DNA of 39,506 nt from a virus: UHGV virus genome UHGV-0354001; one strand, written 5' to 3'. Position numbers: made by a program. Position 1 is the stretch's first letter, and every line of letters starts with the position of its first letter. Shown here piece after piece: positions 24,001-27,000 of this stretch.

Positions 24001-27000
24001 TTCACTCGTCGTCTGCATCAGACGCGAGGCTCATCCATGTTATCGGGGGTGCTGATACGGATCAGTGCCCTTAAGGAGTATGAGGATGCGGAACTCACTG
24101 CGGCGCGTATTGCCGCGGCGCTGGGACTGTATATCCGTAAAGGTGACGGGCAGGACTATGAAGAGCCGGGGATCAAAGAAACCGACCGGGAAGTCCATAT
24201 CACACCGGGTATTATTTATGACGATTTGCGCAAGGGCGAGGATATCGGCATGGTCAAATCAGACCGTCCCAATCCCAACCTTGAAACTTTCCGCAACGGC
24301 CAGTTGCGTGCAGTGGCAGCGGGCAGTCGTCTGAGTTTTTCCAGTGCGGCGCGTAACTATAACGGCACCTACAGTGCCCAGCGGCAGGAGCTGGTCGAGT
24401 CCACGGATGGTTACCTGATCCTGCAGGACTGTTTTATTGGCGCGGTAACCCGTCCGGTGTACCGGACATGGCTGAATATGGTGGTTGCGGCAGGTCTGCT
24501 GAAAATTCCGGCGGATGTGGAGATGAAAACGCTATATAACGCGACGTATTCCGGTCCGGTGATGCCGTGGATCGACCCGGTTAAGGAAGCTGAAGCCTGG
24601 AGAATTCAGATCCGGGGTGGTGCAGCGACAGAATCTGACTGGGTGCGTGCCGGCGGGCGCAATCCGGATGAGGTCAAACGTCGCCGCAAGGCTGAAATTG
24701 ATGAAAACAGCAGACTGGGGCTGGTCTTTGATACTGACCCCGTCAACGACAAAGGAGGCAACAGTGCCGGAACTGAACAACAGCGTCAGCAGGCCACCGA
24801 CAGCCAGCATGAAGAATAAATCCTGGTTCAGGATGCAGGCGGGTGGTCAGGGTGAGGCGGATATTTATATTTATGACGAGATTGGTTTCTGGGGAGTTAC
24901 CGCGAAGCAGTTTGTCAGCGATATGAATGCCCTGGGTGATATCACCCACATTAATCTCCACATCAACTCACCGGGTGGCGATGTCTTTGAAGGCATCGCC
25001 ATTTTTAATGCCCTGAAAAATCACGGTGCGGCCATTACCGTGTATGTGGATGGCGTTGCCGCCTCGATGGCATCCCTGATTGCGATGGCCGGTGACACGG
25101 TCATTATGCCGGAAAATGCCTTCATGATGATCCATAAACCCTGGGGGATCAGCGGTGGTGATGCGGAGAAAATGCGCACTTATGCCGAACGTCTGGACAA
25201 ACTTGAGTCGGTTATGGTGCCGGTATATGCGCAGAAAACCGGAAAAACTACCGATGAAATTGCCGCCATGCTGGCGGATGAGACCTGGATGTCCGGTGCC
25301 GAGTGTCTGGCACACGGATTTGCAGACCAGGTGACGCCAGCCGTTAAGGCAATGGCATGTATTCAGTCAAAACGTACAGAGGAATTTAAAAAGATGCCGG
25401 AATCCATCCGAAATATGATCACGCAGCCATACAACAGTGCCCCGCGTGATACCACAGTGACAATCCCTGCACCGGCGGTAACAGAACCATCACCGGTACC
25501 GGCAGTGTCTGATGAGGCGACCATTCGCGCCCGCGTTATGGCAGAACAGAAAGCCCGCATGTCAGGCATTAACGATCTGTTTGCCATGTTCGGCGGTCGC
25601 TATCAGACGCTTCAGGCACAGTGCGTGGCTGATCCTGACTGTTCGCTGGAAATGGCCCGTGAACGTCTGCTGAATGAAATGGGCAAGGAGTCCTCGCCGA
25701 CCAACAAAAATACACCGGCTCATATTTATGCCGGAAACGGCAATTTTGTGGGGGACGGGATCCGCCAGGCGATGCTGGCCCGTGCCGGATTTGAAAATGT
25801 CGAGAAGGATAACGCCTATAACGGGATGACCCTGCGTGAATGGGCTCGCATGTCACTGACGGAGCGCGGTATTGGGGTGGCCAGTTATAACCCCATGCAG
25901 ATGGTCGGGCTGGCGCTGACGCACAGCACCTCTGATTTTGGCAATATTCTGCTGGATGTGTCGAACAAGGGGCTGATCCAGGGCTGGGAGGAATCAGAAG
26001 AAACCTTCCAGAAGTGGACCCGTAAGGGACGCCTGTCAGACTTCAAAACAGCGTATCGCGTGGGGATGGGCGGTTTTGGTTCTCTGCGCCAGGTTCGTGA
26101 GGGGGCGGAGTATAAATACATCACCACCTCAGATCGCAAGGAGACCATTGCACTGGCCACTTACGGGGAGATTTTCTCCATCACCCGCCAGGCCATTATC
26201 AATGATGATCTGAATATGCTGGTGGACGTGCCGATGAAGATGGGGCGTGCGGCGAAGGCAACGATTGGTGACCTGGTTTACAAGGTGCTGACGGATAACC
26301 CGAAACTGTCAGACGGTAAGGCGCTGTTCCATGCCGATCACAAAAATATTGCCACCGGTGGGATTTCCGTTTCCGGACTGGATGCGGCCCGTCAGATGAT
26401 GCGCCTGCAGAAAGAAGGCGATCGCGCCCTGAATATCCGTCCGGCCTTTATGCTGGTACCGGTGGCACTGGAGACGGTGGCGAACCAGACCATCAAATCG
26501 GCCAGTGTGAAAGGGGCGGATGCAAACGCCGGTGTCATTAACCCCATCCAGAACTTTGCTGAGGTGATTGCAGAAGCGCGTCTTGATGCGGCAGATCCGA
26601 AAACCTGGTATCTGGCGGCGGCACAGGGCACTGACACCATTGAAGTGGCCTGGCTGGATGGTGTGGACACTCCATACATTGATCAGCAGGAAGGTTTCAC
26701 CACTGACGGCATTGCCACAAAAATCCGTATTGATGCCGGAGTGGCACCACTTGACTGGCGCGGGCTGGTGCGTTCGTCGGTGGCCTGATAACCGAGTTAT
26801 CACAATCACTGCCCGAAAGGGCTTTTTTTATGCCTGAAAAACAGCCCCACAGGGGGCTGTCCGGAGAAACAGCATTATGGCGAAAAATTTTGTACAGGAC
26901 GGTACCACCATTGAACTGGTGAATGCCGGAGATCAGACCATCCTGAGCGGTGCTGCGGTGGTGGTCGGCAGTATGGTGGCCGTGGCCATTACCGATATTC

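Follow-up and report, generated by a model that had tools for sequence, protein, structure and literature searches.

A predicted prohead protease/capsid fusion protein of a lambdoid Escherichia coli prophage, and a possible internal start within its gene

The 39,506-nucleotide (nt) virus genome UHGV-0354001, analysed here over its whole length (the window), carries on its + strand at 24809..26788 a single open reading frame (ORF) of 659 amino acids (aa; 71.7 kDa) in which a prohead protease, a scaffold-like segment and a major capsid protein are fused. Very probably this gene specifies the capsid precursor of a lambdoid Escherichia coli prophage and belongs to the family of ClpP-like prohead protease/capsid fusion proteins described by the NCBIfam profile hidden Markov model (HMM) NF045540. 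As sequence comparisons show, the polypeptide comprises, in order: (i) a protease of S14 ClpP fold, (ii) a variable Pro/Ala-rich linker, (iii) a conserved, probably helical segment and (iv) a capsid domain of the Mu-gpT/Phage_capsid_4 type. The arrangement is already known, from experimental work on Gifsy-2 (2010) and from curated family models, and the gene is a typical member of an extremely common group; its occurrence in over one third of complete E. coli genomes gives it little weight as a discovery. Such genes are often still labelled just 'Clp protease', 'head maturation protease' or 'scaffold protein', so that automated searches for capsid genes can miss them, and their correct annotation helps in judging the completeness of head modules in Shiga toxin (Stx)-type and other lambdoid prophages.

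Reading frame and predicted domains

On the + strand, nothing interrupts the frame between 24617 and its stop codon at 26786-26788, and translation from the ATG at 24809 yields 659 aa with zero internal stops. A preceding sequence-only reading of the window had proposed this fused ORF, and its coordinates and length proved right: no authentic stop splits the frame, and matches to Pfam CLP_protease and Phage_capsid_4 fall on the same polypeptide. An identical coding sequence (CDS) with the same boundaries is present in RefSeq for E. coli EC931 (WP_122986669.1), where it is named ClpP-like prohead protease/major capsid protein fusion protein. The curated family model agrees over essentially the whole protein, with NF045540 (scaf_prot_MCP1) scoring 995.8 bits against a cutoff of 475 and aligning aa 17-657 with model positions 2-651 of 652, and the PHROGs family phrog_133 aligning along its entire length (1143.6 bits). 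This is a full-length match at twice the NF045540 cutoff, with no detectable difference from a typical member of either family.

The position of the gene is likewise that of a head-module gene. It directly follows a portal protein gene of the lambda family (23317..24819, +; Pfam Phage_portal_2, E 6e-80; phrog_21), the final 11 nt of which its ATG overlaps in a typical coupled arrangement, and it precedes a head decoration (cement) protein gene (26877..27203, +; Pfam Phage_cement_2, E 5e-19; phrog_122 'head decoration'). Scans of ORFs, Pfam and PHROGs found no separate capsid gene between the portal and tail genes of the window.

A single frame of this kind could also be an artefact, in which two or three genes have been joined by a sequencing or assembly error or by a recent, pseudogene-like fusion. 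Lambda and many other phages encode protease, scaffold and capsid in separate genes, and some entries of the family are broken or chimeric, among them the VT1-Sakai copy with IS629, a frameshifted contig locus (L172) and two terminase-capsid chimeras (P0092, P0122). Relatives in several genera, 57-100% identical, nevertheless keep the frame uninterrupted, and similar DNA covers at least 80% of the gene in 1699 complete E. coli genomes; moreover, a curated full-length HMM exists for the fused form, and the portal and tail genes enclose no second capsid gene. Because the frame is so conserved among relatives, we regard the artefact as refuted and assign it next to no probability. As a separate observation, broken or chimeric copies of the fusion gene are common in databases: the copy in VT1-Sakai (AP000400.1) is interrupted by the insertion sequence (IS) IS629, L172 has been called as separate protease and capsid genes, and entries P0092, P0115 and P0122 are broken or chimeric, some of them joined to terminase or tape-measure domains.

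The N-terminal part of the fusion protein, aa 17-195 (24857..25393, +), is predicted to form a prohead protease domain of the ClpP family (S14). CLP_protease matched at aa 30-176 (E 1.5e-36), and the NCBIfam model NF045542 Clp_rel_HeadMat ('head maturation protease, ClpP-related') at aa 17-175, with 220.8 bits against a cutoff of 120; phmmer matched this part to solved ClpP chains with E-values down to 4e-17, and the conserved protease block stops at aa 195. The putative catalytic serine, Ser86 (codon 25064..25066, +), lies in an AASMAS motif aligned with the catalytic Ser motif of ClpP; the putative catalytic histidine, His109 (25133..25135, +), lies in a MIHKP motif aligned with the IHQP histidine; and Glu158 (25280..25282, +), in ADETW, aligns with the final D of DRD in ClpP, the position of the catalytic Asp. 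All three residues are invariant in five homologs, and among 118 diverse fused proteins Ser is found in 96, His in 117, and Glu or Asp at the acidic position in 76 and 22, respectively.

Since every model of a cellular ClpP equivalog scored far below its cutoff (TIGR00493, 64.6 against 308.6; the remaining ClpP models similarly), the domain is best regarded, on sequence grounds, as a phage prohead protease of ClpP fold and not as a ClpP orthologue. The earlier description of the protease as 'ClpP/S49-like' is therefore narrowed to S14: its ClpP half is borne out by CLP_protease and NF045542, while S49/SppA models reached just 16-28 bits in the NCBIfam search, far below their cutoffs.

Between protease and capsid lie two segments of different character. 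Beyond aa 195 a five-genus alignment (homologs of 57-77% identity) shows an invariant Met196-Pro197, which opens a junction and a variable Pro/Ala/Thr-rich linker delimited by composition and homolog alignment (aa 196-235; 25394..25513, +). Matches to the second NCBIfam fusion model, NF045541, and to phrog_4523 begin here, at aa 196-202, and the Pro/Ala/Thr-rich stretch itself, approximately aa 205-235, is poorly conserved and differs in length among homologs. It is followed by a conserved block at aa 236-303 (25514..25717, +) that is probably helical: in an AlphaFold model that was otherwise poor, the helices at aa 236-259, 266-274 and 280-290 were the sole region with a predicted local distance difference test score (pLDDT) of ~60-75. 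By analogy with Gifsy-2 and HK97, this segment would fit a scaffold or delta-domain-like role.

The major capsid protein domain is predicted to occupy approximately aa 304-659 (25718..26785, +). In the homolog alignment, AHIYAGNGN (aa 304) opens a further block of strong conservation; Phage_capsid_4 matched at aa 369-656 (E 7e-56), and Mu-like_gpT more weakly, at 39.3 bits, still above its threshold of 20.1. When the C-terminal domains of five homologs were combined into a profile, this matched the capsid protein of Pseudomonas phage JBD30 (PDB 8RKC and 8RKX) in two colinear stretches with E ~1e-8, and PDB 9jod with E 3.5e-5. The two JBD30 structures represent its capsid (8RKC) and procapsid (8RKX), and its capsid protein displays the HK97-type elements of extended loop, peripheral domain and N-terminal arm (PMC11445458).

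From homology to Gifsy-2 we infer that the precursor would mature by autoproteolysis, and a sequence of steps can be proposed from that homology together with general knowledge of HK97-like assembly. Starting from the portal, precursors would build a procapsid whose interior receives their N-terminal protease and scaffold parts; the protease domains, activated in the assembled shell, would then remove all that precedes the capsid domain, cutting at a point within approximately aa 290-370. The cleaved fragments would exit, and the shell would expand on DNA packaging and be decorated and stabilised by the protein encoded next (26877..27203). Cleavage near aa 303, giving a mature N-terminus at aa 304, would leave a capsid protein of 38.7 kDa.

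Several points weigh against this interpretation. The acidic position of the putative triad is Glu158, and not Asp as in cellular ClpP. The sequence itself gives no cleavage site or sites, and conservation suggests for the mature N-terminus a range of approximately aa 290 to 370. AlphaFold2 returned unusable models of the C-terminal region, both from the single sequence of aa 297-659 (pLDDT 31.4) and from aa 196-659 aligned with 49 homologs (pLDDT 36.6); those homologs were 71-99% identical and of low diversity, and a homologous-protein search listed no relative below 74% identity, too shallow a set for structure prediction. The head proteins of the related E. coli phage mEp213 "have not been studied", according to a passage of PMC12315714. 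The capsid fold suggested for the C-terminal half by the first reading is supported at the level of sequence and profile homology, through Phage_capsid_4 and the match to the solved JBD30 protein.

Relatives and comparison with known head systems

The fused gene is widespread. Megablast against complete E. coli genomes retrieved similar DNA from 2070 of 5426, with at least 80% of the gene covered in 1699, and every one of the matches listed was annotated as a single fusion CDS. A tblastn search of phage genomes produced 74 records matching at least 80% of the protein; the full-length matches listed were in a single piece, with the exception of PAN70, where the match falls in two pieces and the gene is annotated as disrupted. 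Identity to the fusion protein is 97-99.8% in Stx-converting phages and CP-1639, ~76% in the group of mEp460, mEp213, cdtI and LLS, 75% in Klebsiella, 63% in Fels-1, 62.5% in Providencia, 61.4% in Gifsy-2 and 57.5% in F10-like phages of Pseudomonas. It is because this same unbroken frame recurs in relatives of several genera, and similar DNA in the 1699 E. coli genomes, that we exclude a sequencing artefact. Two scans of viral contigs for related loci returned relatives of 76-100% identity, which add little independent information.

A broader view was obtained by searching 1.84 billion representative proteins with aa 196-659, which retrieved 11042 clusters (50% identity) at E-values up to 1e-3. 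The best 150 of these matches included 149 newly retrieved proteins, and 117 of the 149 were at least 600 aa long, and so possessed an additional N-terminal region. This region was homologous to the ClpP-like domain in 84 of the 117 long representatives and was without such a domain in the other 33. Among a sample of the latter, Phage_capsid_4 was preceded by Peptidase_S78, the HK97 type (P0145, P0197, P0248), or by Peptidase_S49 (P0264); the sampled long relatives lacking a ClpP-like N-terminus also included one terminase-capsid chimera and several proteins without a recognised N-terminal domain. Judged by these domain matches, capsid proteins of the Phage_capsid_4 type are fused to at least three types of protease, in agreement with the existence of NF045541 (scaf_prot_MCP2). 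The present protein resembles that second model in its linker, scaffold and capsid part (aa 202-656, 417 bits) but scores under the family cutoff of 525, and its protease is of the ClpP/S14 type. Fusion of ClpP with gpT has been reported independently in 34% of Paracoccus siphoprophages (PMC6536676).

The closest described counterpart is the tripartite capsid gene of the Salmonella prophage Gifsy-2 (STM1033 / STM1034.3n), with which the fusion protein shares 61.4% aa identity over aa 3-658 in one frame, the three-part layout of ClpP-like protease, central segment and capsid, and the order of its neighbours, with a lambda-type terminase, a small ORF and a lambda-type portal ahead of the fusion gene and the decoration, Z, U and V genes behind it. 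The Gifsy-2 gene differs in a longer annotated N-terminus, a 7-residue insertion ahead of the capsid block and another linker, and its host is Salmonella instead of E. coli. Effantin et al. 2010 (Virology 402:355) reportedly described this 'tripartite capsid gene' as encoding an N-terminal ClpP-like protease, a central domain of ~200 residues with a possible scaffolding role and a C-terminal capsid protein, and are said to have found a T=7 capsid, using the HK97 capsid protein and lambda gpD to model it. The likeness to a Gifsy-type arrangement asserted in the sequence-only reading is upheld both by this identity and by a passage of PMC12315714 that describes the Gifsy-2 protease and coat genes as fused, crediting Effantin et al. 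2010. Gifsy-2 has also been placed among phages that, like lambda, have a trimeric cement protein at threefold axes (PMC8538268), and a study that predicted capsid proteins recovered none of HK97 fold from it (PMC8814770).

In HK97, as here, the capsid domain is preceded on the same chain by a scaffold-like segment (gp5 consists of a delta domain and the capsid protein), which a prohead protease would presumably remove. The HK97 protease (gp4), however, is a separate protein of the S78 type, whereas here protease and capsid share one chain and the protease is of ClpP fold; and the HK97 shell is stabilised by covalent cross-links, while this prophage encodes a separate decoration protein next door.

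Lambda shares with the window the position of the head genes in the late operon, between a lambda-family portal and the tail genes, and its gpD has its likeness in the trimeric cement protein of the Gifsy-2 capsid. The differences are that the protease is S14 here and S49 in lambda, and that the four lambda genes C, Nu3, D and E are replaced by two; the Pfam families of the lambda gpE capsid and gpD decoration proteins gave no match at E-values up to 0.01. The head module had been described at the outset as a mosaic distinct from the lambda-like tail. That view holds for the protease/scaffold/capsid gene and for the decoration gene (Phage_cement_2), and fails for the large terminase (GpA_ATPase/GpA_nuclease) and the portal (Phage_portal_2), both of which are lambda-type. 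With capsid proteins of the JBD30 and Mu gpT type (8RKC, 8RKX), the common ground is the C-terminal profile match to JBD30 and the Pfam match to Mu-like_gpT; the JBD30 chains in the PDB have 302-304 residues and are without a protease domain, and the similarity is limited to parts of the fold.

A possible internal start at Met196

At the boundary between protease and linker, the sequence GAGGA (25379-25383), resembling a Shine-Dalgarno (SD) motif, is followed after a 10-nt spacer by the ATG of Met196 (25394-25396), and the whole (25379..25396, +) might speculatively constitute an internal translation start. Were it used, the gene would yield, besides the 72-kDa protein, an in-frame, protease-free scaffold-capsid protein of 50.5 kDa. 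Most shell subunits would then resemble HK97 gp5, with a delta domain and a capsid domain, and a minority would carry the protease; use of the Met196 start would thus govern how much protease a procapsid contains relative to capsid protein. Generalised to the enterobacterial and Pseudomonas clade, the fused gene would be a nested pair comparable to lambda C/Nu3, generated through GAGGA and Met196.

Nested protease/scaffold genes have precedents in lambda C/Nu3 and Mu I/Z, and several features of the sequence are consistent with another instance. Met196-Pro197 is the invariant pair noted above in the five homologs, it coincides with the module boundary (aa 196-202) at which the NF045541 and phrog_4523 matches start, and no other in-frame start codon inside the gene has an SD-like motif ahead of it. 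GAGGA (AGGAG in F10) stands 9-11 nt upstream of the Met196 codon in 12 of 12 distinct nucleotide contexts among the loci collected. The codon for Glu191 is GAG in all nine sequences compared (63-76% nucleotide identity), while 13 other columns of invariant Glu are all mixed GAA/GAG. For distant relatives cut by contig edges, moreover, gene callers chose an ATG near the start of the linker or scaffold, with an SD-like motif 6-10 nt upstream in three of them (L173-L175).

Other observations speak against such a start. Across 118 diverse fused relatives the Met196 column varies (8 Met, 30 Ile, 26 Val, 22 Ala), whereas 109 of them retain Pro197, so that conservation attaches to the proline and not to a start codon. 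Nor is it unusual for one synonymous codon to be fixed, as in 11 of 100 two-fold-degenerate invariant columns; the SD core at Met196 is weak (GAGG) and its 11-nt spacing long; and every apparent stand-alone scaffold-capsid protein proved to be an artefact of a contig edge or a frameshift. By our own estimate, a full set of N-terminal parts fits the interior of a T=7 procapsid, so that a nested product is not required. We consequently consider internal initiation unlikely in this gene, while granting it some small weight, and judge its operation throughout the clade to be similarly doubtful; a single fused precursor remains the preferred reading. The candidates for stand-alone genes, of 440-480 aa and beginning 'MP...', were rejected individually: L171, L173, L174 and L175 lie at contig edges with the upstream frame open, and L172 is in reality a frameshifted fused gene.

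Prophage context and other features of the window

The fusion gene belongs to a canonical lambdoid late operon in which DUF1441 (the presumed small terminase), a large terminase with GpA_ATPase and GpA_nuclease domains, a small ORF and the lambda-family portal gene lie upstream. Downstream, the Phage_cement_2 decoration protein and a member of the Pfam 'Gifsy-2' family are followed by tail genes in the order Z, U, V (lambda tail tube and Big_2), G/T, tape measure protein, M, L, K, I and J. This gene order is identical in Gifsy-2, mEp460 and PSTCR8lys, and the succession portal, fusion, decoration recurs in metagenomic relatives.

An intact gene could still reside in a defective, non-inducible prophage that currently makes no capsids. 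Many lambdoid prophages of E. coli are cryptic, and IS insertions are found in or near the module of close relatives; set against this, the window shows no disruption, its frames being open and canonically ordered from the terminase and portal through the fusion and decoration genes to the tail genes, and we hold a defective prophage to be improbable.

Consensus scans of 23000-28000 returned promoter-like sites only at the frequency expected from shuffled sequence, and no terminator-like site relevant to the fusion gene; the terminator consensus missed a hairpin at 26811-26829 with a stem of merely four pairs. This short GC hairpin (+ strand), GCCCGAAAGGGC followed by seven T, stands 22 nt past the stop of the capsid gene, and in mEp460 a rho-independent terminator is annotated at the equivalent place. 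A second inverted repeat, CAGCCCC...GGGGCTG, lies near 26841-26860, ahead of the decoration gene.

The gene after the decoration gene (27196-27477, +) encodes a 93-aa protein for which databases offer conflicting labels: Pfam 'Gifsy-2' PF13856 ('ATP-binding sugar transporter from pro-phage'), minor tail protein in PHROGs and 'DNA breaking-rejoining protein' in RefSeq. Its position suggests a head-tail connector gene.

Other parts of the window contain features of separate interest. At its left end, on the - strand (59-2533), an 823-aa protein labelled 'exonuclease' in RefSeq carries a C-terminal Rv2179c-like 3'-5' exonuclease domain (1e-67), with no Pfam match in its ~640 N-terminal residues. 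The region 13348-16966 (+) has the layout of an Stx phage without toxin genes: behind an antiterminator Q gene (13348-14043) come three tRNA genes, Met-CAT, Arg-TCG and Arg-TCT (14254-14503), and then a gene for a 656-aa DUF1737/SASA esterase/DUF6645 protein (14996-16966), and no stx-sized ORF was found in the window between the tRNA genes and the latter. Close relatives of the head fusion gene occur in both Stx1- and Stx2-converting phages. The early region holds a complete type II restriction-modification pair (9469-11485, +), consisting of a C-5 cytosine DNA methyltransferase (DNA_methylase, 4e-54) and then a restriction endonuclease of the NgoMIV family (1e-127); E. coli FDAARGOS_1286 also has this pair in its annotation. 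A homologue of epoxyqueuosine reductase QueH lies between the pair and the replication genes (8604-9290, +; Pfam QueH, 1e-65), a queuosine-pathway gene that is an unusual cargo for a lambdoid phage.

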